A stretch of 64,000 nucleotides of DNA from Opitutus sp. GAS368 (GTDB lineage: Bacteria > Verrucomicrobiota > Verrucomicrobiia > Opitutales > Opitutaceae). Every line of letters begins with the position of its first letter. Within the stretch, counting starts at the first letter, position 1. Below are positions 5,320 to 62,836 of this stretch, piece by piece. The DNA lies in NCBI GenBank assembly GCA_945869845.1, contig CAMBRG010000005.1, positions 522 through 64,521 of the forward strand, written 5' to 3'. The translations under genes and the position numbers were made by a program. The notes under the pieces were generated by a model. The model worked only from the letters and a program-made list of their open reading frames with translations. It did no database searches and had not been told where the DNA came from.

Positions 5320-5330
5320 GATCATCCCGT

Positions 5331-13782: not shown

Positions 13783-13856
13783 TGCCTGATGGTGTAAAGG
13801 TAGCACAGGTGACTTTGACTCACCTAGTCATGGTTCGAATCCATGTCGGGCAGCCA
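13783..13856 (+). tRNA. tRNA-Gln (anticodon UUG), CCA encoded
   Basis: Hand-folded cloverleaf. Acceptor TGCCTGA/TCGGGCA, with the U1-A72 pair typical of bacterial tRNA-Gln. D stem GTGT/GCAC. Anticodon stem GGTGA/TCACC with loop CTTTGAC (anticodon at 13815-13817). T arm CATGG-TTCGAAT-CCATG. Discriminator G followed by CCA. Confidence 0.9.
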
Positions 13857-14652
13857 GTGGTAGATAAGAACTCCGCGCGAGATAAGTCAAAGTTTGTAGA
13901 TCGCTCTAATCCAGTGTTTAAAGGCGAGCTGAAGTTTGACCGGTCGTCGGGAAAGTTCGTCGTTTCATCCACGGCGGTAGACCGTCATGGATGGAATGAC
14001 GAACTTCCTTGAGGCGAGTCAAAGTGACCGGCCGGCATCTACCGGCCACTGATTTCAAGGCGCTTTGAAGCACAGGCGATGCACGGGCGCTTCTGGCAAT
14101 GGCATCGATGGCGCCGAAGTGTCTTGAAATCGGCATCTGATCCGCCATTTTGCGACTCAGAATGGCATTCATTCAGCGAATCTTTATGCCGGGCCGCGAT
14201 CACTTTTTCCTGCTTGGGCCGCGTGGCACGGGCAAGACGCTTTGGTCCACCCATCACTATCCCAAGGCGCTGCGGATTGACCTGCTCGATCCGGAGACAC
14301 TGCGGCTTTTGTCTGCCCGGCCGGAGCGGTTGACCGAATTGGTGGAGGGCAACCGGGACAAGCCCCAGGTCATCATTGATGAAGTGCAAAAACTGCCGGC
14401 CTTGTTGGAGGTCGTGCATCTGTTGATCGAGCGCAAGACCGGTCAGCAATTCATTCTGACAGGATCGAGCGCCCGTAAACTGCGCCGGCAGGGTGTCAAT
14501 CTGCTGGGCGGACGGGCGGCGCAGAAGCACTTGCATCCCTACTTGGCGGCGCAATTGGGCAAACGGTTCTCGCTTGTCAACGCTCGCGAGGAAATGACCC
14601 TGCTTTGCTCGTTCAGAATTGACCCACCCCCGCACGAACAAAAACGAGCGGG

Positions 14653-15471
14653 TTATTGGGACTTGGTGCGCAGACCTCCCTTCGGGTTGTCGGGCAGGGC
14701 GACGGCGCCAGGAAAGAGGCCGGTGAGGCGCTTTTCTTTCATGCGGTAGGAGTCGCCCTTGATGTTGATGACGGTAGCACGGTGGAGGAGACGATCGAGG
14801 GCGGCGGAGGCCATGACGGCGTCTCCGGCGAAGACGTGGCCCCAGTCGGCAAAGGCTTTGTTGGAGGTGATGATTGTGGCAGCCTGTTTTTCGTAGCGGC
14901 TGCAGATGACTTGGAAGAGTAGCGAAGCTTGGTCGTGGTCGAGGCCGAGGTAGCCGACTTCGTCGACGATCAGGAGCTTGGGCGCCGTGAGCATCTTCAG
15001 GTAGTGCGTCATGCGGTTCTGGGCGAAGGCGGTCTTCATCCGGCGGGCCAGTTCCAAGGCGGTGAGGAAGAGCAGGCGCTGGCCGCGCTCGGCACAACTC
15101 AGGCCCAGCGCGATCGCGAGATGGGTTTTACCGACGCCGGGTGGACCTTGGAAGATGACGTTCCTGCCTTCGTCAAGGAAGCGGCCGGTGCCCAATTCCT
15201 CGATCAGGGTGCGGTCGATGGAGGGCTGGAAGGTGAAGTCAAAATCGCCGAGGCGCTTTAGCCACGGCAGTCCGGAGAAGTGGATGCTCGTCTCCACGAC
15301 GCGCTGGCGGCGGGCGGCGATCTCCGGTTCGAGCAGGCGGCCGAGGAAGTGCGAGTAGGACCAGTGGCCGGCGGCGGCTTGTTGGGCGACCGAGTCGAGT
15401 TGGGCGTGAGCGGTGGCGGCGCCGATTTGCAGGAGGCCGTCCTGGGCGAGTTGTTCATAGGGGACGCTCAT
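14653..15471 (-). CDS. istB: IS21-family transposition helper ATPase IstB
   Basis: 272 aa with Walker A GPPGVGKTHLAIALG and an IstB-like C-terminus. Confidence 0.9.
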   Translation of the reverse strand: MSVPYEQLAQDGLLQIGAATAHAQLDSVAQQAAAGHWSYSHFLGRLLEPEIAARRQRVVETSIHFSGLPWLKRLGDFDFTFQPSIDRTLIEELGTGRFLDEGRNVIFQGPPGVGKTHLAIALGLSCAERGQRLLFLTALELARRMKTAFAQNRMTHYLKMLTAPKLLIVDEVGYLGLDHDQASLLFQVICSRYEKQAATIITSNKAFADWGHVFAGDAVMASAALDRLLHRATVINIKGDSYRMKEKRLTGLFPGAVALPDNPKGGLRTKSQ

Positions 15472-16685
15472 GCGGAGACCTCCGCGTAGACGGCCAGGGG
15501 TCGCACCTGCACCGCTTCGTCAAAGGTGATGTGACACCCCTTCGGCGGCGGTGGGACGAGCGTCGGCACGGAGCGCTCCCAGCGTTCGCGCACATGCGCG
15601 GGCGTTTCGATGCGTTGTCCCGCTGCGGTGGCGACGCGGTGCTCGGCGACGATGAGGTCCTTGGCGCGGATCACGATGACGTTGTCGCCGGCGTCGACGG
15701 TGACGCGGGTGCCGACCCAGCGGGCAGGCACCGAGTAATCGCTTTTTTCGTAGCGCACGAGCGCCTCGACGCCGACGGTGCGCGCGGTGCTGTGGGCGAC
15801 CTGATAGGGGTTGAGGCCGGCGCACGGGGTGAGCGTCTCTTCCAGCAGGCGCTCGCAGGGCCTTGCCTTCGTCGTGCCGTGCATGCGGACGTTGGCGACG
15901 CTGCCGAGCCAGTGGCGGCCCTGGGCGTTGAGGTCATCGAGGCCCGCGAAGGTGCGGCCGTTCAGAAAACTGTCGCGCAGATAGGACACGCTGCGCTCGA
16001 CCTTGCCCTTGGTGCGCGGCCGATACGGCCGGCAGCGTTTGACCTCGAAGCCGTGATGGCGGGTGAAGTCGAGGAAGCGCGCGTTGATGTGCTCAGGGCC
16101 GACGACGACCTGGCGCATGTTGTCGTAGAGGATCCGGCGGGGCCAGCCGCCGAAGAAGGCAAAGGCGTTTTGATGGCAGCGAATCAGGGTCGCCAGCGTC
16201 ATCGAGCGCGTGAACTCGACGTAGAGATACCGCGAGTAGCCGAGCACCATGACAAACGCGTAGACGCGGATGCTCGTGCCGTCGGGCTGCGGATACCGGC
16301 CGACCTCGGCCCAGTCGCACTGTGCCTGCTCGCCGGGCGGTGTCTCGAACCGCACGGTGAGTGCCTGGTCGGTGTGGCGCGTGGCCTTGAGCGTCTGCAG
16401 GAAGCGCCGCACGATCTGCGGTGAACCGGCGAAGCCTCGGGCAACGATCTCCGGCAAGAGCCGCACCGCCGACAAGCCATGCGCCTGCCAACGCTCCGTG
16501 AGGTAGGGCTTATAGGGGTCGAGTTTGCTGGCGCGCACCCGTGGGGCGGGCACCGGGGCACGTTTGGCCCGCAGGAGTTTGCGGACCGTGTTGCGAGAGT
16601 GGCCGGTCAACCGCGCGATCTCGCGCACGGAGTGGCCCTGTTTTTGAAGAAAACGAATGTTCATGAACTGATCCAGATTGAGCAT
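15468..16685 (-). CDS. istA: IS21-family transposase IstA
   Basis: HTH N-terminus (MLNLDQFMNIRFLQKQGHSVREIARLTGHSRNTVRK) followed by an rve/DDE core. The ATG at 16683-16685 is preferred over the upstream start at 16727. Confidence 0.9.
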   Translation of the reverse strand: MLNLDQFMNIRFLQKQGHSVREIARLTGHSRNTVRKLLRAKRAPVPAPRVRASKLDPYKPYLTERWQAHGLSAVRLLPEIVARGFAGSPQIVRRFLQTLKATRHTDQALTVRFETPPGEQAQCDWAEVGRYPQPDGTSIRVYAFVMVLGYSRYLYVEFTRSMTLATLIRCHQNAFAFFGGWPRRILYDNMRQVVVGPEHINARFLDFTRHHGFEVKRCRPYRPRTKGKVERSVSYLRDSFLNGRTFAGLDDLNAQGRHWLGSVANVRMHGTTKARPCERLLEETLTPCAGLNPYQVAHSTARTVGVEALVRYEKSDYSVPARWVGTRVTVDAGDNVIVIRAKDLIVAEHRVATAAGQRIETPAHVRERWERSVPTLVPPPPKGCHITFDEAVQVRPLAVYAEVSA

Positions 16686-17704
16686 GGGTGCCTGTGGTTG
16701 AGCGGGGTGCCGCAGGCTATCACGCAAACGCTACGATACGAACTGACGCGCGGAGGACGCTCTCACGGTGGCCGAGCCCCGAGCCGGGCTGCGCTTCGCT
16801 CCGCCCAGCTCGGGGCTCGGCCACCGCTTCTCCTCCGCTTTTACTCCCACAGGGGGTGGGTCAGTTCTAAACGAGCGTTAGTGGGTCAGTTTTACGCAAG
16901 CGTTGATATCGCTGACCGCGGCCTTGCGCCAGGGGATGCTGCCGCTGGTGTGGGCCGCCGACAACCCCGCGGAAATCTTGAGAGTCTACAACGGGCTCTA
17001 TCTTCGGGAGGAAGTGCAGATGGAGGGCCTCGTGCGCAACGTCGGATCGTTCGCGCGGTTCTTGGAGGCGATGAGTTTTTCTCACGGCAGCGTGCTCAAC
17101 CTCAGCAACGTCTCCCGCGACTGCCAAGTGAGCCGGAAGACAGTCGAAGGATACTTGGAAATATTAGAGGATTTATTGCTCGGATTCCGTTTGCCCGTTT
17201 TTGCGAAACGCGCGAAGCGGGAACTGGCGACGCACCCGAAATTTTACTATTTCGACGCCGGTGTGTTCCGGGCCAACCGGCCCAGCGGTCCCTTGGACGC
17301 GCCGCAGGAAATTGACGGTTTGGCGTTGGAGGGACTCGTCGCCCAGCACCTGCGTGCATGGTGCGACTATTCGGCGGGGAATCACCAACTGCACTACTGG
17401 CAGACCCGCTCGCAGGTGGAGGTCGATTTCGTGGTTTACGGCGACTCGGGAATTTATGCGGTGGAGGTGAAGAACTCTACGCAGGTGCGCTCCGATGACT
17501 TGCGGGCGCTTAAGAATTTTGCCGAAGACTATCCTCAAAGCCAGCGCTACCTAGTTTACAGAGGAAAAGAGCGCTTCAAACGCGACGATGTCCTCTGCCT
17601 GCCGGCTGAAGAGTTTCTGTTGGGGCTGCGACCTGGAGAGTTTCAGCCGTAAGGCGCATGCGGGTGGTCTCAGTGTGGTCTCCGACCTTTGGTTGCTTCC
17701 AGCG

Positions 17705-17899
17705 TTTGATTCGCTCCAGAAGTTCGCATCCATGGCGGTTGAAGCGAATGAAGCGAATTGACGACGAGATATTCGGTCACCAGCCCGGCATGACGGCGCC
17801 AAACTTTGACTCATCTTCGATTCTCCCTGCGAGTCTCCCTCTGAAAACGCTCGATTCGCTTCAAAAGTTCGTGGTTTGATCCATGTCGGGCAGCCAGTG
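17705..17899 (+). repeat. att-like composite repeat, copy B: ~175-bp arm plus a 19-bp exact copy of the tRNA-Gln 3' end
   Basis: 17881-17899 (CCATGTCGGGCAGCCAGTG) is identical to tRNA positions 13841-13859. The whole 195 bp is ~90% identical to 19741-19935. It contains an internal direct repeat GATTCGCTYCARAAGTTCG at 17708 and 17852. Confidence 0.85.
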
Positions 17900-18061
17900 A
17901 TCCTTAGGGGTGGCGTGTTCTCCCCTAAGCAGAGGTAGTGCGGACTTTCGTTGGTGCCTCACGTGTATGACCCTGCCGGGCGCGAGCCGACGAAGTTTGG
18001 CGTGGTGAATCTCAGCCAGAGGTAGGCGAGTCTACCTTCTCTGGCCGGATCACCGGATTTT

Positions 18062-18895
18062 TTAGACACCGTCTGAAAAGTCGTCCTCTCGAACTCGCGA
18101 CTCCGGGAAATCAGGCGGTGATTCGACGATTCGGCAGACAGTGTCTGCCGAATCCGAAGTGACCATTCGGCAGGACCGAGGCTGAAGGAGGGGAGTTCTA
18201 TCCGGACAGCCGTTCAGAAAGCCGTCGCCAGTCTGTGTCACGTTCCGAGCCATCTGCTTCATCCATTCACCCTCCGGAGCCAGCGTGATTCCGGCGATGT
18301 TGATTTGGCGCGGAACAATCCGCATGAGCACCAGCGCGTAGTAGGTCATCAGTCCGGCAGCCGTCCACACCTCGGTCGTGAAGAAATCCACGGACGCCAA
18401 CGTTTCCTGATGCGATCGGATAAACTCCCTCCAAAGCATTCTTTTTCCTCGTTCAGGGGCGGGAGCCAAGTCGTGCCGCTTGAGAATGTTCGCCACGGTC
18501 TGGTGGCTGACTTCGTGGCCCAGATTGCTGATGGCACCAACAATCCGCCGGTAGGCCCAACTCCGATTCTCACGGGCAAACTGTAGCACCAATTCTTCGA
18601 CGACCGACGCCGTTGGCGCCCGGCCCACCGCAGATCGGTTCTTCGAACCGTCGAACTTCGTGGCAATGAGTTTACGGTGCCAACCTAGAATGGTCTCGGG
18701 CCGAACAATCTGGGCCACTTCCTCCAGTGCCTTCCTGCTAAGACGCCGACCAATCTCGGCGAGGTTGATTCGCTCCGCATCGGTGAGCTGCAATCGCCCC
18801 TTGATCTGATTTTTGAGAATCCGGTTCTCCGCCGCCAAGTATTCGTTTTGGAGGAGTAGTTCCTCGTCAACCGAACCGGAGATATACGCCAACAT
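18062..18895 (-). pseudogene. truncated IS481/IS3-like integrase-core (rve) transposase
   Basis: HTH plus the start of an rve core (...ASVDFFTTEVWTAAGLMTYYALVLMRIVPRQINIAGITLAPEGEWMKQMARNVT...GFLNG). The sequence then loses similarity before the expected catalytic DDE region. No terminal repeats were recognised. Confidence 0.65.
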
Positions 18896-19097
18896 TCGCT
18901 TCCAATTCGTCGAGGAGAATTAATCCAAGCCATGGCCTGCGCGCAAACGTCAGATCATCTGGCAAATCCTTGAAAATTGGTGGCTTCGAGTTTTTTGACC
19001 ATACGGCGTCGGCGCGTTCGGATTTTCAGACACCACGCGACCGATCTTGACCGGACAACCATTTGTCAGCACTATCATGACAAATCTACACATACTC

Positions 19098-19352
19098 ATG
19101 GCAAAGACACTACAAGTTAGGATTGAAGAAGACCTCCGAACTGAGGCGGACGAGGTGCTTCACGAAATCGGCCTCGACGTTCCTTCTGCCGTCCGGCTGT
19201 TCCTCACCAAGGTTGTCCAAACTCGGAGCATTCCGTTCGAGCTCAAGGCCTCCGGTATGCGCGTCGTGGAACTTGCCGTCGATCCCGACATCCATGCCCG
19301 CATGGACGAGATCGGAACCCTTTGGGCGAAGAAGAAACTTCAAAGGGTGTAA
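19098..19352 (+). CDS. RelB/DinJ-family type II antitoxin
   Basis: MAKTLQVRIEEDLRTEADEVLHEIGLDVPSAVRLFLTKVVQTRSIPFEL fits the ribbon-helix-helix DinJ pattern. The ATG at 19098 is preferred over the track start at 19047. Confidence 0.75.
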   Translation: MAKTLQVRIEEDLRTEADEVLHEIGLDVPSAVRLFLTKVVQTRSIPFELKASGMRVVELAVDPDIHARMDEIGTLWAKKKLQRV

Positions 19353-19355
19353 TCT

Positions 19356-19745
19356 GTGGCGCTCTTCATCTCCGAGCGCATTCGCAAGCGCGAGTTTGGC
19401 CGGGAGATTTCTTCCGCCGACAAGGAAACACTCTTGGAGGGCGCGCGCGTCTGCCTGAGTGCGAGCATCGCCGGTCACGGCTTGCCCAAAGGCACCCGTT
19501 TGCTCAAGGCTTACGCCACAACGAAACAAGGCCCGCGCCGGATCCTCTATCTCCTCGTCGTCCAGGAAAATGACTTCTTTGTGCTTTTTTATCGCCCCAA
19601 ACAAGACGACGTCGGTGCAAACATGAGCCCGAAAAATCCCGTCTTCAGCAGCGCCCTCACGAAGCACCTAGATCTGCTCCGCGTTGACCTGGCCGCCGGC
19701 AGAATCGAGCAAATTACACCCGAAGCAGACGGCGTGCCGGTTTGA
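19356..19745 (+). CDS. putative cognate toxin (distant RelE/HigB-like), unknown family
   Basis: 129 aa with a GTG start 4 nt after the antitoxin stop. The segment RRILYLLVVQENDFFVLFYRPKQDD resembles the RIxY...LLxxFxKK strand pattern of RelE-superfamily toxins. The call rests mainly on position. Confidence 0.45.
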   Translation: MALFISERIRKREFGREISSADKETLLEGARVCLSASIAGHGLPKGTRLLKAYATTKQGPRRILYLLVVQENDFFVLFYRPKQDDVGANMSPKNPVFSSALTKHLDLLRVDLAAGRIEQITPEADGVPV

Positions 19746-19983
19746 TTCGCTCCAGAAGTTCGTATCCACGGCGGTTGAAGCGAATGAAGCGAATCGATGG
19801 TGAGATATCCGGTCACCAGCCCGGCATGACGGCGTCAAACTTTGACCTGCTTTCGATTATCCCTGCGAGCCTCCCTCTGAAAACGCCCGATTCGCTTCAA
19901 AAGTTCGTGGTTTGATCCACGCCGGGGAGCCAGTGGGATACGAACTCCGCGCGAGATAAGTTAAATTTTGTAAATCGCTGTAA
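19741..19983 (+). repeat. att-like composite repeat, copy C: arm, degenerate tRNA 3'-end core, and a copy of the tRNA-downstream flank
   Basis: The core at 19917-19936 (CCACGCCGGGGAGCCAGTGG) matches the tRNA end at 17/20 positions. 19942-19983 matches 13868-13909, the sequence just downstream of the real tRNA, at 38/42 positions. Confidence 0.85.
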
Positions 19984-20257
19984 AACAACATGAAAAGATG
20001 AGCTAAAGGGTTCTCACCGTGCTCATTATTTTTCCGGGTAGGTGCAAATCCCTCGACACTGTCCGCAAATAATCGACCGCGGCCTGCTGGTCCCGGTTGA
20101 GCGAATCGGCCAGGGTTCCAGACCAAAAGTGTGTCGGGAGCTTTGGGATCATCGCCTCTAGATTCTATCTTCTCGCACTTCCGCCAAGATCCGTCGCCGC
20201 GCTTGGATTTCCAGACACCAAGGCGTTCCCCGTCGAATCGCCGGCCCGATTAGGAGG

Positions 20258-21736
20258 TCACGCCAGAATGCCGCGGATCACGTGACCATGCACGTCGGTC
20301 AGGCGGCGCTCGATTCCGCTGTTGTAGAAAGTCAGCCGCTCGTGATCGAGGCCGAGAAGGTGAAGAATCGTGGCGTGGAGATCATAGATCGTCGTGACCT
20401 TGTCCACGGCCTTGAACCCGAGATCGTCGGTGGCGCCGTAGGTGAAACCGGGTTTCACGCCCGCGCCGGCCAACCAGACGGTGAAGCCCTTTTCGTTGTG
20501 GTCGCGGCCATTGGCGCCCTTTTGAAACGTCGGCATGCGGCCGAATTCGGTGACGAATGCCACCAGCGTGTCCTTGAGTAGTCCGCGTTCTTTCAGATCC
20601 CGCAATAGCGCGGCGGCCGGTTGATCGAGGATGGGCGCGTGAGTAGTGTATTGATCGACGATGTGTTTGTGTCCGTCCCAGTTGCCGACGCCCTCGCCCA
20701 TGGCGTAGGCACCGTTGAAGAGCTGCACGAAACGCACGTCGCGCTCCAGAAGCCGACGCGCGAGCAGGCAGTTGCGGGCGAATCCCGCTTTGGTCTTGTT
20801 GCCATCGTTCACCCCGTAGGCCTGCAACGTCTGCAGACTCTCTTTGGCAAAGTCACCGACCTCGGCCGCGGCGAGCTGCATTTTGGCGGCGAGTTCGTAG
20901 GCCGAGATCCGCGCCGCGAGTTCCGTGTCACCGGGATTCTCCGCGAGATGGCGATCATTGAGCAGTTTTAGAAAATCGTAAGTCGCGCGGTCATTCTGCG
21001 CGGTGACACCAGCCGGTCGGTTAAGATGCGGGATCGGTTTGTCGGCGTTGAAGGTGACGCCCTGATATGCTGCGGGCAGAAACCCGGCAGCCCAATGGCG
21101 CGAACCGGTCTGCGGCACGCCGCGTGGATCGGGAATCGCCACGAACGCGGGCAGATTCTGGCATTCGCTGCCGAGCGCATACGTCGCCCACGAACCGATG
21201 CCGGGAAAACCATCGAGGATGAAACCTGTGCTCATCTGATTTTCTGCCGGACCGTGCGCGGCGGACTTCGCGGTCATCGAGTGAATGAAGCACATCTCGT
21301 CGGCGAGTTCCGCGAGATCGGGCAGAAGGTTGGAAACCATCTTGCCACTCTGTCCACGGGGTTTGAATTCCCAGAGCGGTTTGATGACGTTCCCCTGCAT
21401 GCCCTGGCCGGTGATAAGACCTTCGCCGCCCGGCATGGGCTGGTTGTGCAGCCGAATCAGCTCGGGCTTGTAGTCGAAGGTGTCGATGTGGCTGATTGCC
21501 CCGGAGCAGAAGATCATCAACACGCGTTTGGCTTTGGGCTCGAAATGCGGTGGGCGTGGCGCGTAGGGCGTGCGAGAGTTAATCTGCGGACGCCACGGAG
21601 CCCCGGCCGCGCTGAGGCGTTGTTCGGCCAGGAGGGCGGCGAGCGCAATGCCTCCGAGTCCTGTTCCACCCCAGCGAAGGAAATCACGGCGACTGAGGAG
21701 ATGGCGTCCGGCGTGCGAGAGAGGGGAGGGGTTCAT
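20258..21736 (-). CDS. DUF1501 domain protein (sulfatase/alkaline-phosphatase-like fold) with a twin-arginine signal
   Basis: Tat motif SRRDFLRWGG and the conserved GRDHN region (ANGRDHNEKGFTVWLAGAGVKPG). The ATG at 21736 is preferred over the TTG at 21760. Confidence 0.85.
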   Translation of the reverse strand: MNPSPLSHAGRHLLSRRDFLRWGGTGLGGIALAALLAEQRLSAAGAPWRPQINSRTPYAPRPPHFEPKAKRVLMIFCSGAISHIDTFDYKPELIRLHNQPMPGGEGLITGQGMQGNVIKPLWEFKPRGQSGKMVSNLLPDLAELADEMCFIHSMTAKSAAHGPAENQMSTGFILDGFPGIGSWATYALGSECQNLPAFVAIPDPRGVPQTGSRHWAAGFLPAAYQGVTFNADKPIPHLNRPAGVTAQNDRATYDFLKLLNDRHLAENPGDTELAARISAYELAAKMQLAAAEVGDFAKESLQTLQAYGVNDGNKTKAGFARNCLLARRLLERDVRFVQLFNGAYAMGEGVGNWDGHKHIVDQYTTHAPILDQPAAALLRDLKERGLLKDTLVAFVTEFGRMPTFQKGANGRDHNEKGFTVWLAGAGVKPGFTYGATDDLGFKAVDKVTTIYDLHATILHLLGLDHERLTFYNSGIERRLTDVHGHVIRGILA

Positions 21737-21743
21737 GGTCGAA

Positions 21744-24700
21744 TCAGTGAACGTGGACAAATTCGTTCGTGTTGAAGAGCGCGCGGCAGAAAAGCGGCAG
21801 GCCGTGCTCCGCGATCATCGCGACTGCGGCGGTCGTCTCCACCGGCGCCGGCTCGCGACCAAACATCAGTCGAAACGCCAGCCGCACCTGCGCGCCGGCG
21901 GTCGGGCCCGCCTCCCGCTCCAATCGAGCGGCGAGGGCCGTCGTCTGCTGCATCATGAATGGGCTGTTGAGGAGATTGAATGCCTGCAACGGTGTCGTTG
22001 ACCGAGTGCGGCTCGGCGCAATCTGGCCGGCGTCGGGACAGTCGAACGCGCCGAAGACGTCGTCGAGCTGCGCGCGCGGTTTCGTCTGATAAACCATGCG
22101 CCGGAAATCGTCCCCGGAAAAATCAACCTTCGGCACGTAAGTCTGGACGTTGCTCTGGCTGATATTGGCTTCGAACAGGAAGAATCCCGGACCACCCTCG
22201 CGCAGATCCAGCTGGCCAGCCGCGGTGATGATCGCATCACGCAACGGTTCGGCGTCCAAGCGTCGCGGCGGATAGCGCCAGAGGAGCCGCGACGCAGCAT
22301 CAACTTCGAGTCCTTTGGGGTGCGGGCGCGACGACTGCCGGTAAGTGTCAGAAAGCAGGATCAGCCGGTGCATTGATTTCATGCTCCAGCCACGGGCGAC
22401 AAACTCGGTCGCCAGCCAGTCCAGCAGCTCCGGGTGCGTGGGCTTGGCTCCGTTCATTCCGAAGTCGCTCGGGGTGTCCACGAGACCGGTCCCAAAGTGA
22501 TAGTGCCAGATGCGGTTCGCCATGACTCGGGCCGGCAGCGGATTTTCCGAATCAACGAGCCAGTCCGCTAGGGCCAGACGGCGTTTTTGCTCCGGAGCGT
22601 CGCGGGGCAGTTCGAGCTTCTTCCCAAACCGGGCTAGCCCGGCCGGCGCCACTTGCTCGCGGGGTGACAACGTCTCGCCGCGGTGCAGCCGAAACGTCGG
22701 GCCCGGTTCGCGCAACCTGCCCGCGTAGACCGGCGGAAAGTCGATCAGACGCTTCACCTCAGTGCGGAGGGTCCGGCGTTCAGCGACCAGCTGGGCAATT
22801 TCCATTACGCGCGCAGTCGGCACGGAGCTGAGCGTCGGCACGTCTGGCACGCGCTTCCGCCACGCATCGCCTAGACGATCCTGGGACCCAGCCACCTGCG
22901 TCCATGCGCGCCCATCGACCGAGATCTCGATCCGATATCCCGTGACAAGATGGTCGTCCAGTTTGGGCTGACGATCACTACGGTTGCGGCTCCACAGCAT
23001 ACGGTCGATCCGCTCCACTTTCGGAAACTCGATCTGCACGAACCCCGGCCCCTTGGCGGGAGAATTCCAGGCCGCACGCTCGTTGTAGCGGCCATCATTC
23101 ACGTAAAACGGATTGCCGTCCTCGCCGTCGACCACGGGCGAAGTCGCGGTGGCGCCGAATTCCTTTAGGGCGACATTCCGGGGCGACTCGCCGGCAGTAA
23201 AGACCTCGAGTTCGTCGATGTAGCCCTCAGGGGTGTTCGAGGCGAGGACGGTGAAGCGCACGAACTTGGCGTCGATCGGTTCGAAGCGCTCTTCGTTGGT
23301 CTTCACGACCACGGGCGCCCGCAGATGCGGCGTGTGCATGGGAGCCTCGCCCGCGGTGGTTTTCAATTCCTCGAGGAGGACTGCATCGGCGGACAGCATG
23401 CCGCTTCCGACTGCGATAAGCGCGAGCCGGCTTTCGCTCGTCAGCGTGTGGATGTTGGCGTCGTAAAATCCACTCCAGCGTTTCTCGCCGGAGACCGCCG
23501 GTGAGCCATCGGCAAACTTGGCCTGGCTCACCTGTGCGATTTCGCGCCCGTCGAGCGTGACGCGCACCGCCGTCGCGTGCTCCGGTGCCACACCCCACGA
23601 AAGCCAGACGCGGAAGCGGCCGACCGGAAGCGCGCCCCATGGCTGCCACGCCGATGCGCTGTCGCCGCCCGCGGGACGCACGCGGAAGTTCTCATTCAAG
23701 GTCGGTAGCCGCAGCTCGTCGCCCGCGTCGCTTGCCTGGCCGCGGGCCGACCCTGCCGTATAGGCAACAGACTCGCTCGTCTTCTCGGGTGCCAGCGCGA
23801 CCACTCGCTTGGCCCGCACCAGCGGCCGAAACGGTGCGAGCTGAGCGTCGATCGACGCGATACCGCGCCGCGGCGCCGCGGCCTGTGCCATCAACGCGGC
23901 GTGGTTGCGCGGCCGCAACGGACGTTCGCCGTGCTCTACACCTTGGAAAACCGCGACCATCGAATAGTAGTCGGCCTGCGAAATGGGATCGAATTTGTGA
24001 TCGTGACAGCGCGCGCAGCCCACGGTGAGGCCCAAAAACGCACTGCTCGTGGTGCCGACGAACTCGGAGAGTTCGTCCCCGCGTTGGCCGAGGTTAAAAT
24101 AGGGTGGCTCGAAACTTTGCAGGAAGTCGAAGGATCCGCCGACGATGAAGCCCGTCGCTTCGTCGACCCCGAGCGCATCGCCGGCGAGCTGCTCGCGGAC
24201 GAACTGGTCGTAGGGTTTGTCCTCGTTCAAGGCACGGATCACGTAGTCGCGATAGGGCCACGCGTTCGGACGGAGATTGTTGCGCTCGAAACCGTCGCTC
24301 TCGGCAAATTTCACGACGTCAAGCCAGTGCCGCGCCCATCGTTCGCCGTAACGCGGTGACGCGAGCAGCCTCTCGACCAAACGGGCGTAGGCATCCGGGG
24401 ATTTGTCCGCCACAAACGCGTCCACTTCATCCGGCGTGGGCGGCAATCCAATCAGATCAAAACTCAGCCGGCGAATAAGCGTCCGCGCGTCGGCCGGCGG
24501 CGAGAGCGCGAGGCCGTTTTCCTTCAGCTTCACCGCGATGAACGCGTCGATCGGAGTTTTCGCCCCGCCCGGGGGAACAGGCGGCGTTTCTGGACGAGCC
24601 AACGGACGAAACGACCAGTGTGATTTCCATTTCTCCCCGACGGGCGCCCGACCGTCGTCGGGCCAAACGGCTCCTTGGTCGATCCACGCGCGGAGGATTC

Positions 24701-25052
24701 CGATTTGTTCTCCAGTTAACGGGTCGCCCTTGCTTGGCATGAGCATGTCCTCGACTAGGTCGGCAACGTAGTGAATGAGCGGACTCGCCGCGCTCTTTCC
24801 GGCACGAATGTTGGGCGCTGAACTTTCGCCCCCGGCCAGCGCGATGCTTTTGTCGTCAAGCCGGTAGCCGCTGCGTTGTTTTTCCGGGCCATGACACGAG
24901 TAACAGGATTGCTCGAAGATCGGCTGAACATCGCGGGTGAAATCGATCGGTCGCGATGCGGGCGGCGGTAGTTTCGAAGCATCGACGGGTGCGTCGGCAA
25001 ATACAGGGGTGCCCAGAGCGCAGAGGCCAAGTAAGAGCGCAGGCTGTCTCAC
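21744..25052 (-). CDS. PSCyt1-DUF1549-(discoidin-like)-DUF1553 giant protein (PSD1 family)
   Basis: Signal peptide, then the haem c site CYSCHGPEKQRSGYRLD. DUF1549 segment (...LIRRLSFDLIGLPPTPDEVDAFV...), the CARCHDHKFDP motif, and the DUF1553 C-terminus. A middle insert (FVRFTVLASNTPEGYIDELEVF, GYRIEISVDGRAWTQV) looks like an F5/8 type C domain. The GTG start forms a GTGA overlap with the GMC stop. Confidence 0.85.
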   Translation of the reverse strand: MRQPALLLGLCALGTPVFADAPVDASKLPPPASRPIDFTRDVQPIFEQSCYSCHGPEKQRSGYRLDDKSIALAGGESSAPNIRAGKSAASPLIHYVADLVEDMLMPSKGDPLTGEQIGILRAWIDQGAVWPDDGRAPVGEKWKSHWSFRPLARPETPPVPPGGAKTPIDAFIAVKLKENGLALSPPADARTLIRRLSFDLIGLPPTPDEVDAFVADKSPDAYARLVERLLASPRYGERWARHWLDVVKFAESDGFERNNLRPNAWPYRDYVIRALNEDKPYDQFVREQLAGDALGVDEATGFIVGGSFDFLQSFEPPYFNLGQRGDELSEFVGTTSSAFLGLTVGCARCHDHKFDPISQADYYSMVAVFQGVEHGERPLRPRNHAALMAQAAAPRRGIASIDAQLAPFRPLVRAKRVVALAPEKTSESVAYTAGSARGQASDAGDELRLPTLNENFRVRPAGGDSASAWQPWGALPVGRFRVWLSWGVAPEHATAVRVTLDGREIAQVSQAKFADGSPAVSGEKRWSGFYDANIHTLTSESRLALIAVGSGMLSADAVLLEELKTTAGEAPMHTPHLRAPVVVKTNEERFEPIDAKFVRFTVLASNTPEGYIDELEVFTAGESPRNVALKEFGATATSPVVDGEDGNPFYVNDGRYNERAAWNSPAKGPGFVQIEFPKVERIDRMLWSRNRSDRQPKLDDHLVTGYRIEISVDGRAWTQVAGSQDRLGDAWRKRVPDVPTLSSVPTARVMEIAQLVAERRTLRTEVKRLIDFPPVYAGRLREPGPTFRLHRGETLSPREQVAPAGLARFGKKLELPRDAPEQKRRLALADWLVDSENPLPARVMANRIWHYHFGTGLVDTPSDFGMNGAKPTHPELLDWLATEFVARGWSMKSMHRLILLSDTYRQSSRPHPKGLEVDAASRLLWRYPPRRLDAEPLRDAIITAAGQLDLREGGPGFFLFEANISQSNVQTYVPKVDFSGDDFRRMVYQTKPRAQLDDVFGAFDCPDAGQIAPSRTRSTTPLQAFNLLNSPFMMQQTTALAARLEREAGPTAGAQVRLAFRLMFGREPAPVETTAAVAMIAEHGLPLFCRALFNTNEFVHVH

Positions 25053-26851: not shown

Positions 26852-26891
26852 TTCCGAAAAGCTGCTATCGGTGCCAAGAAATTGGCCCGGA

Positions 26892-28187: not shown

Positions 28188-28431
28188 GGCAGCAGTGATT
28201 TTCGGGGAATCGACCAGGCGGGGTTAAAGGCAGAGTCGCCGAAAACAGCGGCGCGCATCGTAAACAGAATCTACAGTGAGGGGGCAGAAATGGGTATCAA
28301 GATCAAAGATCGATGTGATCGATCATTAAGTTATTGACAGCAGATGACGCTAGAATCACCTCAACTGGTGAGCGGTATTCCGGATGCCTCACCTTACCTC
28401 ATCCTCGGGATTCCCCCCCCTTTATCATTCA

Positions 28432-29010: not shown

Positions 29011-29048
29011 ATGATCGTCGAAACTCGCAGCCAACTACTGAAATAACG

Positions 29049-29957: not shown

Positions 29958-29991
29958 CGTCGCCCACCCCTGTCGTCCCCCATCAAAAATC

Positions 29992-32301: not shown

Positions 32302-32312
32302 TCCGTCCATCC

Positions 32313-35333: not shown

Positions 35334-35443
35334 ATCGAGCCTCGGTTCGTTACGGCCAATAACGCTCTGGCAATTTGAACCGACTGGACAAAAGGTTTTC
35401 TACGACTCCGGTTCCATTCAACGCGGAGCCCAGTTTTTAATCC

Positions 35444-36127: not shown

Positions 36128-36308
36128 GGAGCGGTTGGGTCCAAAAGGGATAGAAATTAGGGCAGCTGGGTTCGGTCGGCAGAGCATGAGCGCTACGAGG
36201 GCGTGGTGTTTGATAATTCGAGCGACGGCTAAGCCCCGTCGCGGGAATCTTCTCCCAGTAACTTCACGTCTGCAAACCCGCGGAGATGTTTCACTATGAA
36301 CCCCGCGG

Positions 36309-36400: not shown

Positions 36401-36467
36401 CCGCTGATCAGAGAGACGCCCGTTTTTCGTCCAAAGAACGGCTTTCTGTATCAAGTACTGCTCGGAA

Positions 36468-40433: not shown

Positions 40434-40491
40434 GATCAGGAGGTGCGGAGCGGAAAATCCACCGCCCAGCGGTCCATGGTTGGAGGGAACC

Positions 40492-41961: not shown

Positions 41962-41988
41962 GGGTACGGGGCCTGAGTGCGGACTGGG

Positions 41989-45291: not shown

Positions 45292-45304
45292 GAGGTCTGT
45301 CTCC

Positions 45305-51664: not shown

Positions 51665-51674
51665 AGTCTCCCTC

Positions 51675-53897: not shown

Positions 53898-55462
53898 TCA
53901 CCCGATTTCCGTCCTCACACCCGGCTCTCACCGCGGGCGACCGGCGCCGGCATGCTAGCTGGCTTCGGCTCGTGGCGACGAGCCTGGCTGGGGCCGGCCT
54001 CCTTGGAACCGCGCGGTCCGCTGAACCAACCGCGCGTCCGGTGGCATATGAAAGGATACCTTACACGCTGCCGGCCGAGCCCAAGTTTGAAGTCAGTGGA
54101 ATCGCCGTCCTTCCGGACGGACGGGCGGCGCTGACCCTGCGCAAAGGGGAGGTCTGGATTCTGGAGAATCCGCTGGAGGATCCGACGAAGGCCCGCTTTT
54201 CACGTTTTGCCTCGGGACTGCACGAACCGCTTGGCCTGACCCTGCACCAGGGAGCGTTGTACACGACTCAACGGAGCGAAGTGACCCGACTGGAGGATCG
54301 GGATGGCGACGGTGTGGCGGAGACGTACGAAACCGTGGCCAAGGGGTGGGGATTGTCGGGGAACTACCACGAGTATGCCTACGGCCCGGTCTTCGATCCG
54401 GCTGGCAATCTGTGGGTCACTCTCAATGTCACCATCGGCAACCCGGCCAAGCTTTCCGGTCATCGCGGGGGCCCTCCGCTCTGGCGCGGGTGGGCGATGC
54501 GTCAGGAGCCGGGAGGCGATCTCAAACCGGTGGCGGCCGGGTTCCGCTCGCCGTTTGGACTGGGCCTCAACGCCGAAGGGGATGTCTTTGCCACGGACCA
54601 GCAGGGAAACTGGTGGGGTGGCTGTCCGCTGATCCATGTGAAGCCTGGCCGCTTCTACGGTCACGCCGACTCGATTCCCGACACCCGCCGGCCGGAGTCG
54701 CCGGTCCAGGATCCGGGCACCCTCCCGCAGGGCTTGACGGTGGTGGAGGCCGCGGCGCGCGTGCCCGGCCTGACTCCGCCTGCTGTGTGGTTTCCTTATG
54801 TGAAAATGGGGCAGAGCACGACTGGGTTGGTCTGCAATCTCACGGGAGGAGGCTTTGGCCCCTTTGAACGCCAGGTCTTTGTCGGAGACTTCACCTTGTC
54901 GCAGGTCAATCGGGTTTTCCTCGAGAAAGTGGACGGTGAATATCAAGGCGCGTGTTTCCCTTTCATGGACCAGCTCCAGTCCGCCGTGTTGCAGATGGCC
55001 TTTCTGAAAGACGGGTCGATGATCGTGGGTGAGTCGAACCGCGGCTGGAATTCGCTCGGGAATCGTTCGTTCGGCCTAGAGCGGATACGCTGGACTGGAC
55101 GGATTCCGTTCGAGATTTTGACGATGGAGGCAAGGCCGGAGGGCTTCCGGCTCACGTTCACGGAACCGTTGGCGACGCCGTTGTTGGTCCGGCCGGATCA
55201 GTTCCGGTTGAGCAGCTATACGTATTTGTATCACGCGTCCTACGGCAGTCCTGAAACCGATACTAGGCCCGTCGAGGTTCGGTCGGTGAAGGTGTCTGAA
55301 GATGGCCGTCAGGTGGATCTGCAGTGCGCTGGTTTGCGACCCGGCTACGTGCATGAACTCACGTTGGCGCCCTTGAATTCGATCACGGGCCAGGCGTTGA
55401 GGTACGACCGCGCCTACTACACTCTCAATCGGATTCCTCGGCTCGATGCGGTCCGCCCCTAA
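53894..55462 (+). CDS. beta-propeller protein resembling soluble PQQ-type sugar dehydrogenase / PVC putative dehydrogenase domain
   Basis: ATGA overlap with the cytochrome gene. Contains IAVLPDGRAALTLRKGEVWILENP, HEPLGLTLHQGALYTTQRSEVTRLEDRDGDGVAE and GPVFDPAGNLWVTLN. Confidence 0.7.
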   Translation: MITRFPSSHPALTAGDRRRHASWLRLVATSLAGAGLLGTARSAEPTARPVAYERIPYTLPAEPKFEVSGIAVLPDGRAALTLRKGEVWILENPLEDPTKARFSRFASGLHEPLGLTLHQGALYTTQRSEVTRLEDRDGDGVAETYETVAKGWGLSGNYHEYAYGPVFDPAGNLWVTLNVTIGNPAKLSGHRGGPPLWRGWAMRQEPGGDLKPVAAGFRSPFGLGLNAEGDVFATDQQGNWWGGCPLIHVKPGRFYGHADSIPDTRRPESPVQDPGTLPQGLTVVEAAARVPGLTPPAVWFPYVKMGQSTTGLVCNLTGGGFGPFERQVFVGDFTLSQVNRVFLEKVDGEYQGACFPFMDQLQSAVLQMAFLKDGSMIVGESNRGWNSLGNRSFGLERIRWTGRIPFEILTMEARPEGFRLTFTEPLATPLLVRPDQFRLSSYTYLYHASYGSPETDTRPVEVRSVKVSEDGRQVDLQCAGLRPGYVHELTLAPLNSITGQALRYDRAYYTLNRIPRLDAVRP

Positions 55463-60455: not shown

Positions 60456-62266
60456 AAACACCGCGTCTGCTTCGTCTTGCCCTGAGTCCGATCGCTCGCC
60501 TGCCGCTGCTCGTTTGGGCAACCGGGTGTTTTCTTTATGGGTCGGAGCCAGCTGCAGCGAGCCAACCCAATCTCCTCGTCGTCATGACCGACGACCAAGG
60601 CGAATGGGATCTCGGCAGCACGGGCAACCCGCATATCGAGACGCCGAACATGGATGCGCTCGCTCAGAGCGGCGTGCGTTTTTCCCGCTACTACGCGGCG
60701 CCGGTGTGCTCGCCCACGCGCGCGGGCATGATGACGGGCCGCTACGCCTTTCGCACGGGAATCTACAACACGCGCTTCGGCGGCGATTCGCTGGCGCTTG
60801 GCGAAATCACGGTCGCGCAACTGCTCAAGGGAGCGGGCTACCGCACCGGGCTTTTCGGCAAATGGCACCTCGGACGCTACCACGGCTACCAGCCGCAGCA
60901 GCGCGGTTTCGACGAGTTTCTCGGTCACTACCAAGGTCACATCGAGCGCTACGAATACGCGGACCAGTTCGTGCACAACGGGCGGCCGGTCGAATCGCGC
61001 GGCTATGTCACCGAACTCGTCACGGATGCGGCGATCGACTTCATCGACGAATCGAAACGCCGCGCCCCCGCCGCGCCGTTCTTCTGCTACTTAGCCTATA
61101 GCGCGCCGCATTCGCCGTTTCAGATGGACACCTCGCACGCCCACCAGCCGAAGGGCGACGCGATGATCGAAAAATATCTCAAGAAAGGGCTCCCGCTGAT
61201 GCAGGCGCGGATCTACGCGATGGTCGAGCGGGTCGATCAGAACCTCGGCCGCCTGCTTGCGCATCTCGAAACAAGCGGGCTGGCCAAAAACACAGTAGTA
61301 TTTTTCATGAGCGACAACGGCGGAGTCAGCAAACACTGGACGGGCGATTTGCGCGGCTTCAAGGCGCAGGTCTACGAAGGCGGGGTGCGCTCGCCGCTGT
61401 TTGTCCGCTGGCCGGAAAAATTTCCCGCCGGAGGAGTAGTAAGTGGCCAGGCCTCGCACGTGGACCTGTTGCCCACGCTGTGCGAACTCGCTGGAGCGAA
61501 AGTTCCGGGCGATCGCGAGATCGACGGTCGCAGCCTCGTACCGCTGCTGCGCGCTGGCACAGGCGACCGGCATCACGAGTATGTCTATCACTCGTGGAAC
61601 CGAATGCTGCCCACGCCGGATGCCAATTGGGGCATCAGCGATCAACGTTTCAAGTTGGTCGGGCCCGGCGGTGGCGCGCGGACGAAGGAAGGCGAGACTA
61701 ACTGGGGCCTGTTCGATCTCGAAAATGATCCAGGCGAAAAGAAAAATCTCGCGACCGAGCAACCGGCCAAGGTGAAAGCGCTGCGGGGAGAATTCCTGCG
61801 CTGGTATGGCGACGTCACCCGCGGGATGAACTATGCGCCGGTGCCGATTCCCGTGGGCCACGCCGACGAGAATCCCGTCGAGCTCCAGCCGAGCTGGGCC
61901 AAAACGAGCGGCGAGAACACGAAGTATGTTTTCGAGGCCTACGATTGGGACACGATCGAGGGTTGGTTTAAACCGGGGGAGGCGGCCGAGTGGAAAATCG
62001 TCGTCGCGCAAGGCGGCCGCTACGAGCTCGCGCTCGACTATGGGTGCGCCGGCGCGAACGTCGGGGGCCGCCTGAAGATCGGCATCGGGTCCGCGAGTGT
62101 GGAGTTCACGCCGGCCCGCACCGGCACGTCCAATGTGTTCAAGCGTGCGGTCGCCGGCATCCTGACCCTACCCTCGGGTCCTGCCACGCTGCGGGCCGAG
62201 GTCGCAGCTGCGCCTGCCGGTGAAGTATTGCGCCTTAACCGCATCTGGGTCCGCCGCCTCGAATGA
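60452..62266 (+). CDS. Cys-type sulfatase with a C-terminal beta-sandwich (carbohydrate-binding-like) extension
   Basis: ATGA overlap with the previous sulfatase gene. PNLLVVMTDDQGEWD and the motif CSPTRAGMMTGR. The last ~120 aa (GWFKPGEAAEWKIVVAQGGRYELALDYG...) look like a CBM-type domain. Confidence 0.9.
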   Translation: MKTPRLLRLALSPIARLPLLVWATGCFLYGSEPAAASQPNLLVVMTDDQGEWDLGSTGNPHIETPNMDALAQSGVRFSRYYAAPVCSPTRAGMMTGRYAFRTGIYNTRFGGDSLALGEITVAQLLKGAGYRTGLFGKWHLGRYHGYQPQQRGFDEFLGHYQGHIERYEYADQFVHNGRPVESRGYVTELVTDAAIDFIDESKRRAPAAPFFCYLAYSAPHSPFQMDTSHAHQPKGDAMIEKYLKKGLPLMQARIYAMVERVDQNLGRLLAHLETSGLAKNTVVFFMSDNGGVSKHWTGDLRGFKAQVYEGGVRSPLFVRWPEKFPAGGVVSGQASHVDLLPTLCELAGAKVPGDREIDGRSLVPLLRAGTGDRHHEYVYHSWNRMLPTPDANWGISDQRFKLVGPGGGARTKEGETNWGLFDLENDPGEKKNLATEQPAKVKALRGEFLRWYGDVTRGMNYAPVPIPVGHADENPVELQPSWAKTSGENTKYVFEAYDWDTIEGWFKPGEAAEWKIVVAQGGRYELALDYGCAGANVGGRLKIGIGSASVEFTPARTGTSNVFKRAVAGILTLPSGPATLRAEVAAAPAGEVLRLNRIWVRRLE

Positions 62267-62465
62267 GTTCGCTCCCTAGCTCCGCACCTTGATACCGGCG
62301 GACTCAGACCTGATACCCGGGCCACAAAACGGGAGTGAATTGAACCCGAACGCCGAAGTTGCGCGCGAGGCATGAGGTGGCACCTCGGCCAAGACGTTAG
62401 GGGCTGGCGCCAGCCGGCACTGTTGCGGGTAGCACGCAATCCAACTTCGGCGAAGTGGGAGGCAT

Positions 62466-62790
62466 TCATTGCAAGATGGAGTCCAAAAGCGGCCAATGCT
62501 TCGCGAGGCCACCCCAGGCCTGCAATAATTTGAGGGCGACCTGCTTGCTGACGAGTCCGAGGATCGCCCCGGCGACGAAGACCTGGCTGCGCAAGGTGGC
62601 CGGTTGCCGATATGGGCACGCGGGGTCGAGTTGGCGTTGGTAGAGGCCGAGCAGGATGAAGGCGAAGAGCACGCTCAGAAACGCCGCCTCGTTGACGCCG
62701 AAAAACTCGCGCACACAAAAGTTCCCCTCCGAGAGGTCGCACTTGAGTTCCTCGATGCGCTGTTCGATTAACGTGCTTCCTGCATTTTGA
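62466..62790 (-). pseudogene. C-terminal fragment of a DDE transposase (IS1380/IS4-like)
   Basis: ...IEELKCDLSEGNFCVREFFGVNEAAFLSVLFAFILLGLYQRQL... matches the conserved C-terminal block of IS4/IS1380-type transposases. The upstream coding sequence is replaced at ~62790 by att-like repeat copy E. Confidence 0.55.
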
Positions 62791-62836
62791 TTCACTTCAA
62801 AAGTTCGTGGTTTGATCCATGTCGGGCAGCCAGTGG
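62786..62836 (+). repeat. att-like repeat, copy E: distal part of the arm plus a 20-bp exact copy of the tRNA-Gln 3' end
   Basis: GATTCACTTCAAAAGTTCGTGGTTTGATCCATGTCGGGCAGCCAGTGG. Positions 62817-62836 are identical to 13841-13860. Confidence 0.85.

Follow-up and report, generated by a model that had tools for sequence, protein, structure and literature searches.

The 3' end of a tRNA-Gln gene as a probable attachment site for small integrase-less cassettes in Opitutaceae

A 64,000-nt stretch of Opitutus sp. GAS368 (contig CAMBRG010000005.1; the whole stretch is called the window, and L001 and similar numbers denote related loci or contigs retrieved for comparison) holds a tRNA-Gln(UUG) gene that is separated by 49 kb from fba, the gene of a class II fructose-bisphosphate aldolase. 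We suggest that in Opitutaceae the 3' end of tRNA-Gln(UUG) is probably the attachment site for a family of small, non-autonomous integrative cassettes. Across at least 25 species, ~100 related loci carry a conserved sequence (the arm) followed by a copy of the end of the tRNA gene (the core), in one orientation and, where the tRNA gene is on the same contig, downstream of it. An initial annotation of the window had read the 49 kb as a tandem accretion of three elements. This fits the first two segments, which behave as discrete recombinase-less units and recur elsewhere, but not the third, which is native-like chromosomal DNA.

Copies of the tRNA end in the window

The tRNA-Gln gene is intact and is followed by three direct copies of its own last 17-20 nt, as in nine other loci. 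Matches to the 20-nt core (CCATGTCGGGCAGCCAGTGG) start at 13841 (0 mismatches), 17881 (1), 19917 (3), and 62817 (0), all on the plus strand, and 0 are expected from shuffled sequences. The first copy, at 13840-13860 in the pattern search, consists of the last 17 nt of the tRNA gene plus GTGG, and likeness to the tRNA continues upstream of the 20-mer into the T arm. The search re-found the three further copies, at 17881, 19917, and 62817 and in the same orientation, that the initial annotation had listed. Its claim that every core outside the tRNA gene is preceded by one common arm also stands: the 196-nt arm+core units at 17704-17899 and 19740-19935 are 90% identical, and 62789-62839 matches their last ~50 nt. 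The likeness it had seen between the DNA after the third core and that after the tRNA gene is present as well, with 39 of 43 positions matching (13863-13905 against 19937-19979) and 79% identity over a longer span (13863-13934 against 19937-20008). Housekeeping genes lie on either side of the block, as it had described, with valS upstream and fba downstream of the array; the ValS sequence assigns the window to Opitutaceae. Features from the tRNA gene to the third core, and those at the fba border, are listed below (P' denotes the sequence that follows a core, numbered by type, and B' the flank on the fba side). Segment 1 (cassette A) spans 13857-17896 and segment 2 (cassette B) 17897-19932.

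13783-13856, plus strand: tRNA-Gln(UUG), the attachment target; sole tRNA in the window by ARAGORN, Rfam tRNA 60.8 bits
13857-13960, plus strand: P'1 left end of cassette A (..GATAAGAACTCCGCGCGAGATAAGTCAAAG..), from post-core alignment
14150-14574, plus strand: AAA_14/DUF4143 ATPase gene, 5' part, cargo of cassette A; Pfam AAA_14 1.2e-17
14575-16908, minus strand: element of the IS21 family of insertion sequences (IS), with istA (15468-16727) and istB (14653-15471); Pfam rve, IstB_IS21
16909-17652, plus strand: ATPase gene, 3' part (DUF4143, weak NERD-like nuclease match); Pfam DUF4143 3.4e-32
17704-17899, plus strand: long arm and core copy 2, attR-like right end of cassette A; core search, self-alignment
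17897-18208, plus strand: P'2 left end of cassette B (ATCCTTAGGGGTGGCGTGTTCTCCCCTAAG..), a type that begins Schlafen/HATPase_c_4 cassettes in other loci
18062-18895, minus strand: IS481-like DDE transposase remnant; Pfam HTH_32 and HTH_Tnp_Tc3_2, below curated cut-off
19047-19745, plus strand: RelB antitoxin gene (19047-19352) and putative toxin gene (19356-19745); Pfam RelB 9.7e-12
19740-19936, plus strand: long arm and core copy 3 (3 mismatches), right end of cassette B; core search, self-alignment
62789-62836, plus strand: short arm (last ~28 nt of the arm) and exact core copy 4, just before the fba terminator
62837-63897, minus strand: B' flank and fba (62947-63897); Pfam F_bP_aldolase 4.9e-81

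Structure of the arm

Two forms of arm precede cores, a long one of ~180 nt and a short one of ~28 nt; the short form with its core closes cassettes in L014, L018, L025, L045, and L078, as it does in the last copy of the window. We collected 93 arm-type sites (long or short), 80 of which are distinct. The long arm+core of the window is 70-98% identical to long copies of related loci, and among 49 diverged copies both arm ends are at least 90% conserved while the center drifts. The arm repeats ~37 nt of its end internally and contains ATTCGCTTC/GAAGCGAAT four times, the inverted repeats ATTCGCTTCAA / TTGAAGCGAAT, and, at its center, CTTTGACTCACC, which is identical to the anticodon loop and stem of tRNA-Gln. 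Conserved ends without covariation are consistent with several protein-binding sites, like those in a phage-type attP arm.

The inverted repeats and the internal direct repeat could also suggest an ordinary dispersed repeat, like a miniature inverted-repeat transposable element (MITE) or a repetitive extragenic palindrome, or else a structured RNA or attC-like site, in each case unrelated to integration at a tRNA gene. We consider this extremely improbable. MITEs occur in many scattered copies in both orientations, with terminal inverted repeats and target duplications, whereas arms number one to four per genome, keep one orientation per locus, are linked to tRNA-Gln, and end in the tRNA's own 3' end. 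For the same reasons (few copies, single orientation, linkage to tRNA-Gln), the arm+core is not the scattered repeat that the initial annotation had named as grounds for abandoning its reading. RNAalifold predicts 21 pairs for the arm, in which only the conserved inverted repeats are paired and compensatory changes number 0, Rfam finds no family in the window apart from the tRNA itself, and an integron integrase was not detected. The reading as a structured RNA or as a folded site of the attC kind was therefore rejected, as the arm is conserved in sequence, lacks covariation, and matches no Rfam family.

Distribution among Opitutaceae

A 22-mer from the arm interior retrieves 32 stretches in 27 species-representative genomes, nearly all of them metagenome-assembled genomes (MAGs) of Opitutaceae, at 1-4 per genome. 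With a 19-mer from the arm end, 84 metagenome stretches are found, ~75 with a true arm and ~9 that are chance matches lacking it. Most related contigs are short (2-15 kb). In every locus that holds both tRNA-Gln and arms (10/10), the arms are downstream of the tRNA gene and on its strand, and no locus has arms on both strands. No arm was found in IMG/VR, phage, and plasmid collections, the one IMG/VR match (L128) being a chance match inside a gene. Units of the window are found again in further Opitutaceae (84-97% nucleotide identity), arranged differently and beside different neighbors. The proposal that the tRNA-Gln 3' end is an integration hot spot is supported. Our literature searches returned no account of this cassette system in Opitutaceae.

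Some loci have peculiarities of their own. In L012, the array stops close to a tRNA-Pro(GGG) gene of the other strand (5008-5084). Arm-bearing contigs also occur in MAGs labeled Akkermansia muciniphila (L032) and Acidobacteria (L035); these labels probably reflect mis-binning, because the cassettes are 85-88% identical to those of the window. In other genera of Opitutaceae, the repeat runs ~60 nt beyond the CCA end, as TTCGACGCGG..CTTGCTCATGGCCTGCGGCC (L018 487-560 and 2679-2750; L004, L005, and L011 after the tRNA), and a minus-strand gene restored by each element may begin with CTTGCTCAT.

Cassettes and their cargo

Outside the window, the 20 distinct units that run from core to core are 1.1-7.1 kb in size, most ~2 kb. 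Their genes are mostly intact and compact. According to Pfam and PADLOC, the commonest cargo is the DUF4143 ATPase (PADLOC candidate PDC-S01), and other cassettes carry Schlafen-AlbA_2/HATPase_c_4, IetA with IetS, AEP-TOTE helicase with SoFic, TPR-PIN, HipA, RelB with the putative toxin, GIY-YIG, or unannotated pairs of open reading frames (ORFs). Neither NCBIfam nor Pfam has a match to the small ORFs in the 1.1-kb cassettes, to the putative toxin (19356-19745), or to a 234-amino acid ORF at 62038-62742.

Sequences that follow cores fall into recurrent P' types, and each type stands behind the true tRNA gene in some loci and behind an arm core in others, as predicted by site-specific integration at any available core. 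P'1 (~80-95 nt) follows the true tRNA gene in L069, L121, and the window, and arm cores in L012, L036, L059, L069, L080, and at 19933 of the window. P'2 follows the true tRNA gene in L034 and arm cores in L023, L025, L080, L115, L118, and L121. Cassette order varies accordingly: X, P'2-Schlafen, P'1-ATPase in L080; tRNA, P'1-TOTE/Fic, P'2-Schlafen in L121; tRNA, P'1-ATPase, P'1-TOTE in L069; and, in the window, tRNA, P'1-ATPase interrupted by IS21, P'2-IS remnant-RelB/toxin, P'1 remnant. Many P' types have GAAC...GTCAAA in common. GTCAAA, the complement of CTTTGAC in the tRNA anticodon loop and in the arm, lies 29-35 nt past the core in 16 of 68 distinct non-B' flanks (1.2 expected).

Left ends of two other types are repetitive and could be protein-binding arrays. 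P'5 consists of iteron-like GTAGTGG repeats (GTAGTGGTCGAGTAGCGGAGTAGTAGTGGCAAAGTAGTGG..; L022 1248-1330, L027 55-1, L030 4236-4320, L023, L033 5357), and another type of CGGTGAT..ATCGTTGGTGC repeats (L010, L034). Behind P'3 sequence and ~100 nt past the true tRNA-Gln, a degenerate remnant resembling a short arm and core (..CAGAAGTTCGTGGTTTGCTCCACGCCGGGG.., without the CCA end) is present in L001 (11100-11135), L002 (12986-13014), and L003 (9246-9274). The remnant is kept between lineages at 91% and 98% ValS identity to the window and may have been left behind by an older mini-cassette.

Cassettes A and B are genuine members of this arm+core family. In cassette A, the IS21 element splits the DUF4143 ATPase gene, has imperfect 55-nt terminal inverted repeats, and is flanked by a 5-bp target duplication (TCGCT). 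Its insertion is recent, because it is not found in L069 nor in any other copy of the cassette (at least 15 others). The uninterrupted orthologue in L069 matches PDC-S01 (1.3e-47), and the 3' part of the window gene is 95-98% identical in amino acids to copies in seven loci of the genome scan. A near-perfect 29-nt inverted repeat (16766-16826; 90% complementary, 3-nt loop), which gave spurious weak miRNA matches in Rfam, lies upstream of istA and just within the right end of the element.

The initial annotation treated segment 2 as a single element. It is a unit bounded by cores, but its pieces are a Schlafen-type left end (17897-18208), the IS remnant (18205-19006), and a RelB/toxin cassette with its arm (19038-19936). 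Cassette B is, to judge from these pieces, a mosaic of two cassette types fused at the IS remnant. A full-length HTH_32+rve protein of L035 has 46% identity to the remnant, and the RelB/toxin pair with arm recurs at 82-90% nucleotide identity in L012, L032, L035, L052, L056, L072, and L112.

Both cassettes are atypical in composition, with GC contents of 0.57 (A) and 0.56 (B) and tetranucleotide correlations of 0.77 and 0.73 against a minimum of 0.89 in size-matched controls. Because their units recur, cassette orders are shuffled, P' sequences follow either the tRNA gene or an arm core, and recombinase genes are lacking, segments 1 and 2 fit integrase-less tandem cassettes.

Haplotypes at the same site

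The region between tRNA-Gln and fba is polymorphic among close relatives, and L001, L069, and the window all differ. L001 has 98% ValS identity and 97% DNA identity to the window and is laid out as valS, tRNA-Gln, 2.7 kb with a truncated AEP-TOTE gene and a Fic gene, a full arm+core, and fba; the fba flank, the conserved right border of the variable region, directly follows the full arm+core. L069, 97-98% identical to the window, is laid out as tRNA, P'1, intact ATPase gene, arm-core, P'1, TOTE helicase gene, Fic gene, and arm positions 1-89, beyond which are window positions 36397-37129, 73 nt, and the fba flank. By comparison of layouts, neither IS21 nor cassette B is present in L069, and 19993-36307 and 37130-62845 are missing as well. 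L122, which comes from a different sample of the study that produced L001, is 100% identical to window positions 25444-46127, the 20.7 kb retrieved. At least three haplotypes therefore exist within one species, with 2.8 kb (L001), ~7 kb (L069), or 49 kb (window) from tRNA-Gln to fba, so that the relatives lacking the 49 kb that the initial annotation proposed to look for do exist.

That annotation had also taken the segment nearest the tRNA gene to be the most recent. Such an order is not required: L069 has cassette A but not B, hence there was either an insertion of B at an internal core or a loss of B from L069. In L028 (461-2402; also L092), a lineage with 99.4% amino acid identity in fba, a HipA/HipB-like cassette lies between arm+core and fba and the terminal core is missing before the fba flank. 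The last core is also lost in L069, and deletions at the fba-side junction thus seem recurrent.

The left flank is variable too. About 10 kb upstream of valS, L001 has a resolvase gene (132-818) in place of the ABC-transporter genes of the window. Upstream of valS in the window is a gene of an HNH endonuclease (5304-5951), adjoined by a 342-amino acid ORF (3615-4643) without a Pfam match in the place where L001 and L002 hold a SEC-C/YchJ-like gene.

The 43-kb block

Segment 3 is 42.9 kb in size, its genes between 20 and 62.7 kb are ordinary catabolic and transport genes of the Planctomycetes-Verrucomicrobia-Chlamydiae type, and it has the following features.

19933-20030, plus strand: P'1 remnant, left end of a former cassette; aligned with L069, L121, and cassette A, homology stopping ~80-95 nt past the core
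20031-36244: native block, part 1; DUF1501, PSCyt/PSD1, GMC oxidoreductase, MFS, sugar-isomerase-like, TonB receptor, DUF7133 cytochrome c, GntR (Pfam)
36308-36396, plus strand: arm fragment without core (long-arm positions 1-89), 85% identity, in the GntR/GFO intergenic region
36456-62742: native block, part 2; GFO oxidoreductase, MFS, LRR/PSCyt1, DUF1501, PSD1, TonB receptors, CoA-transferase, enoyl-CoA hydratase, GntR, cytochromes, two sulfatases (Pfam)

The initial annotation regarded the block as an integrated element, and the whole 49 kb could accordingly be a stack of three mobile elements of which the third is a large metabolic island of the same family. Such a stack would explain why a genuine P'1 left end (19933-20030) stands on one side of the block and a short arm with exact core (62789-62836) on the other, and why the block is not in the conspecific L001 and L069, and the accretion literature describes cis-mobilization and capture of genes between att sites (PMC5704250). 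We nevertheless judge it quite unlikely. The block is six times the size of the largest complete unit elsewhere (7.1 kb), and its tetranucleotide usage is native-like (r = 0.96 against the housekeeping flank for both parts). A per-segment comparison of composition, which the initial annotation had proposed, hence separates it from the atypical cassettes A and B. Synteny is also contrary to an element. L123, from a sister lineage with 93% DNA identity, is collinear with 26813-36244 and 36456-45337 (93.6% for the latter) and lacks an arm between the GntR and GFO genes; in L124 (70% amino acid identity), 21468-36001 is collinear and adjoins TIM-PGK-GAPDH; and in L125 and L126 the DUF1501 gene of the block's left end is followed by ordinary genes with no tRNA-Gln array, homology ending at the stop codon.

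The arm fragment inside the block, overlooked in the initial annotation, likewise speaks against a single island. It is without a core and is not present in the matching GntR/GFO intergenic region of L123. The fragment and its downstream junction, from arm position 89 to the GFO side, are common to the window and L069 at 98% identity, and in L069 they are preceded by the TOTE/SoFic cassette into which the same P'1 leads. We conclude from its size, composition, and synteny that the 43 kb is chromosomal DNA bracketed by att remnants and not a cassette. Two histories would fit. Chromosomal DNA may have come to lie between att sites through cis-mobilization and gene capture, which are reported for accretion (PMC5704250), or the block may be ancestral at tRNA-Gln, with core-to-core and other deletions having removed it from L001 and L069.

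Some block genes are paired. Paralogous MFS sugar-transporter genes with ~70% DNA identity stand one per half (27372-28102 and 38215-38951), and DUF1501 and PSD1 gene pairs are also duplicated (20258-25052 and 40492-45291). Exact-protein look-ups of ValS, DUF1501, and a TonB receptor of the window gave no match, probably owing to start-codon or strain differences, and a look-up of 53894-55462 returned only the window's own contig.

Search for a recombinase

Pfam scans of 45 long ORFs (at least 90 amino acids) and a local hidden Markov model (HMM) screen of all reading frames of at least 80 amino acids detect no tyrosine or serine recombinase in the window, in agreement with the initial annotation. 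The transposases present are of the DDE type (IS21 IstA and the IS481-like remnant). Among 2,247 ORFs (at least 100 amino acids) in 121 loci, phmmer and HMM screens find recombinases only in loci without an arm, namely, tyrosine recombinases in three chance loci (L043, L089, L109) and a resolvase in L060. Among the top 25 Pfam families listed for 85 neighboring ORFs, none is an integrase. Among the loci available, we found no integrase-bearing partner element and no circular contigs, and we saw no fragments of integrase, excisionase, transfer, ICE (integrative and conjugative element), or IME (integrative and mobilizable element) genes inside cassettes. Because recombinase genes are lacking in arm loci, the enzyme is predicted to act in trans.

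Proposed mechanism

A cassette consists of a P' left end, one to few defense or toxin-antitoxin genes, and a right end made of the conserved arm plus the tRNA's last 17-20 nt. The circular form, joined as arm-core-P', would recombine at the tRNA end or at whichever core the array contains, so that integration regenerates the tRNA gene and stacks cassettes head to tail, and recombination from core to core would remove or reshuffle them. We infer the recombinase itself, its type, the roles of the binding sites, and mobility at the present day: the enzyme is likely encoded elsewhere, most likely as a tyrosine integrase of an autonomous relative, and the ATTCGCTTC/GAAGCGAAT repeats and the CTTTGAC/GTCAAAG pair that flanks the core are putative protein-binding sites. 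In the window, cassette A with its DUF4143 ATPase was later struck by IS21, and cassette B joins a Schlafen-type left end to a RelB/toxin right end across the IS remnant. Beyond B lie the left-end remnant of a third cassette, the 43 kb of native chromosome with its arm fragment, and the short arm+core by fba.

Several points weigh against this reading. Neither a truly empty site, with the fba flank directly after the tRNA gene, nor a circular junction was seen in this species. An integrase was found nowhere, and it is the anatomy of the loci that suggests site-specific recombination. The screens, with XerD, lambda Int, and the L001 resolvase as queries, and with Pfam applied to subsets, could miss a very divergent enzyme, and short contigs could leave an integrase-bearing member outside. 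Cassettes could be shuffled by homologous recombination between 200-bp arms after DNA uptake, with no dedicated recombinase today. For the 43 kb, a comparison of L001, L069, and the window fits either capture or an ancestral position followed by deletion.

Another possibility is that the arrays are dead relics, in which old integrase-bearing islands have decayed and arms now only support homologous exchange or deletion. We regard this as unlikely. It would account for the lack of recombinases in ~100 loci, the loss of 37130-62845 from L069, the mosaic of cassette B, and truncated arms at 36308 and in L013, L016, and L035, and 200-bp arms provide enough homology for exchange. But cargo genes are mostly intact and compact, and no integrase, excisionase, or transfer-gene fragments are seen inside cassettes. 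A decayed, CIME-like (cis-mobilizable element) origin, which the initial annotation had considered, is possible. Furthermore, identical cassette types stand at the tRNA gene in some genomes and deep in the array in others, and arm ends and P' motifs are at least 90% conserved over at least 25 species while the arm center drifts, which argues for selection on the sites.

Comparison with known systems

The trans-acting system proposed here resembles several known forms of tandem integration, of which we consider the arrays a family-wide variant at tRNA genes. As in tRNA-targeting islands, insertion is at the 3' end, the tRNA gene is regenerated, a direct repeat marks the far boundary, and occupancy differs among close relatives; base composition is atypical for cassettes A and B but not for the 43 kb, and an element-encoded integrase near attL is lacking.

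Closest in organization are CIMEs, att-flanked units without integrases that accrete in tandem at ICE and IME sites, as described for ICESt1/ICESt3 of Streptococcus thermophilus (PMC5704250). By definition, a CIME arises when an ICE or IME decays and is mobilized by a related integrase-bearing element beside it. Cassettes A and B are bounded by cores and hold only cargo and IS genes and, like CIMEs, lie between attL/attR copies of a gene's 3' end without integration or transfer genes. Stacking by site-specific integration at a resident att site, with possible cis-mobilization and capture of adjacent DNA, is a further likeness. Unlike CIMEs, Opitutaceae cassettes are many, small (1-7 kb), and family-wide, with a conserved 200-bp arm that holds tRNA-derived pieces; their loci show neither ICE/IME remnants nor an identified integrase-bearing partner; and it is a tRNA gene, not fda or a ribosomal-protein gene, at which they insert.

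The ssrA islands of Dehalococcoides are also tandem, with 20-bp repeats of the ssrA 3' end and an extra conserved motif upstream of the repeat (PMC3146451). In both systems several units stand behind one small-RNA gene, some units lack an integration module, and a syntenic "fixed" region lies beyond. Most ssrA islands, however, carry a six-gene module with the serine recombinase DsiB by attL, which is not found here, and their cargo is reductive dehalogenases whereas that of Opitutaceae is defense systems.

Tycheposons of Prochlorococcus are tRNA-linked islands with stacked elements and scattered partial tRNAs (10.1101/2020.12.28.424599). They share with the arrays the use of tRNA 3' ends as island hot spots, the pushing of older elements inward by successive integrations, defense genes among the cargo, and island DNA most of which is not an active element. 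Yet tycheposons are defined by an inward-facing integrase and replication genes, and Opitutaceae cassettes have neither, are smaller, and have a long conserved arm. We rejected membership because an integrase is lacking and the only AEP primase-helicase noted is a member of the TOTE conflict systems (PF22548).

Integron cassettes, and clusters of attC sites lacking integrases (CALINs), likewise form arrays of one- to few-gene units with a recombination site at the 3' end, a recombinase encoded elsewhere, and frequent toxin-antitoxin and defense cargo. The arrays could thus be an integron-like platform, with the tRNA-Gln 3' end as attI and 1-7-kb defense and toxin cassettes inserted, excised, and exchanged by a recombinase encoded away from the array (chromosomal or of an unrecognized type, the very common DUF4143 ATPase, with a nuclease-like C-terminus, being a long-shot candidate), and with tens of kb of ordinary chromosome occasionally bracketed and moved; we consider this doubtful. 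Integrons differ in that attC, an imperfect palindrome with R''/R' core sites, is conserved in structure while the arm is conserved in sequence without covariation, and the array begins at a tRNA gene and not at an attI beside intI, with no IntI seen. Membership among integron cassettes or CALINs was rejected on account of the junction, which is the tRNA 3' end and not GTTRRRY, and of the 0 compensatory changes. Judged by eye only, the tRNA 3' end and long arm are unlike dif, the 28-bp XerC/XerD site that flanks Xer/dif modules (integrative mobile elements exploiting Xer, IMEX).

What appears to set the Opitutaceae arrays apart is the combination of very small, family-wide cassettes, mostly defense cargo, a long, sequence-conserved, tRNA-derived arm, and the lack of an integrase in ~100 loci and of ICE/IME remnants.

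Implications

The family-wide hot spot gathers anti-phage and toxin-antitoxin systems (IetAS, SoFic/TOTE, PDC-S01, Schlafen-like, HipA, RelB) in Verrucomicrobia, a phylum in which mobile elements have received little study. Its 43-kb block, which is ordinary chromosome, makes the window a caution as well, namely, that DNA bracketed by att sites need not be an element. The ~200-bp arm+core offers a sequence handle for mining cassettes, finding the recombinase, and following strain-level gain and loss in metagenomes with multiple haplotypes. Should the recombinase prove to be encoded by the host, the system would naturally exchange cassettes and might be of use for site-specific integration in Verrucomicrobia.

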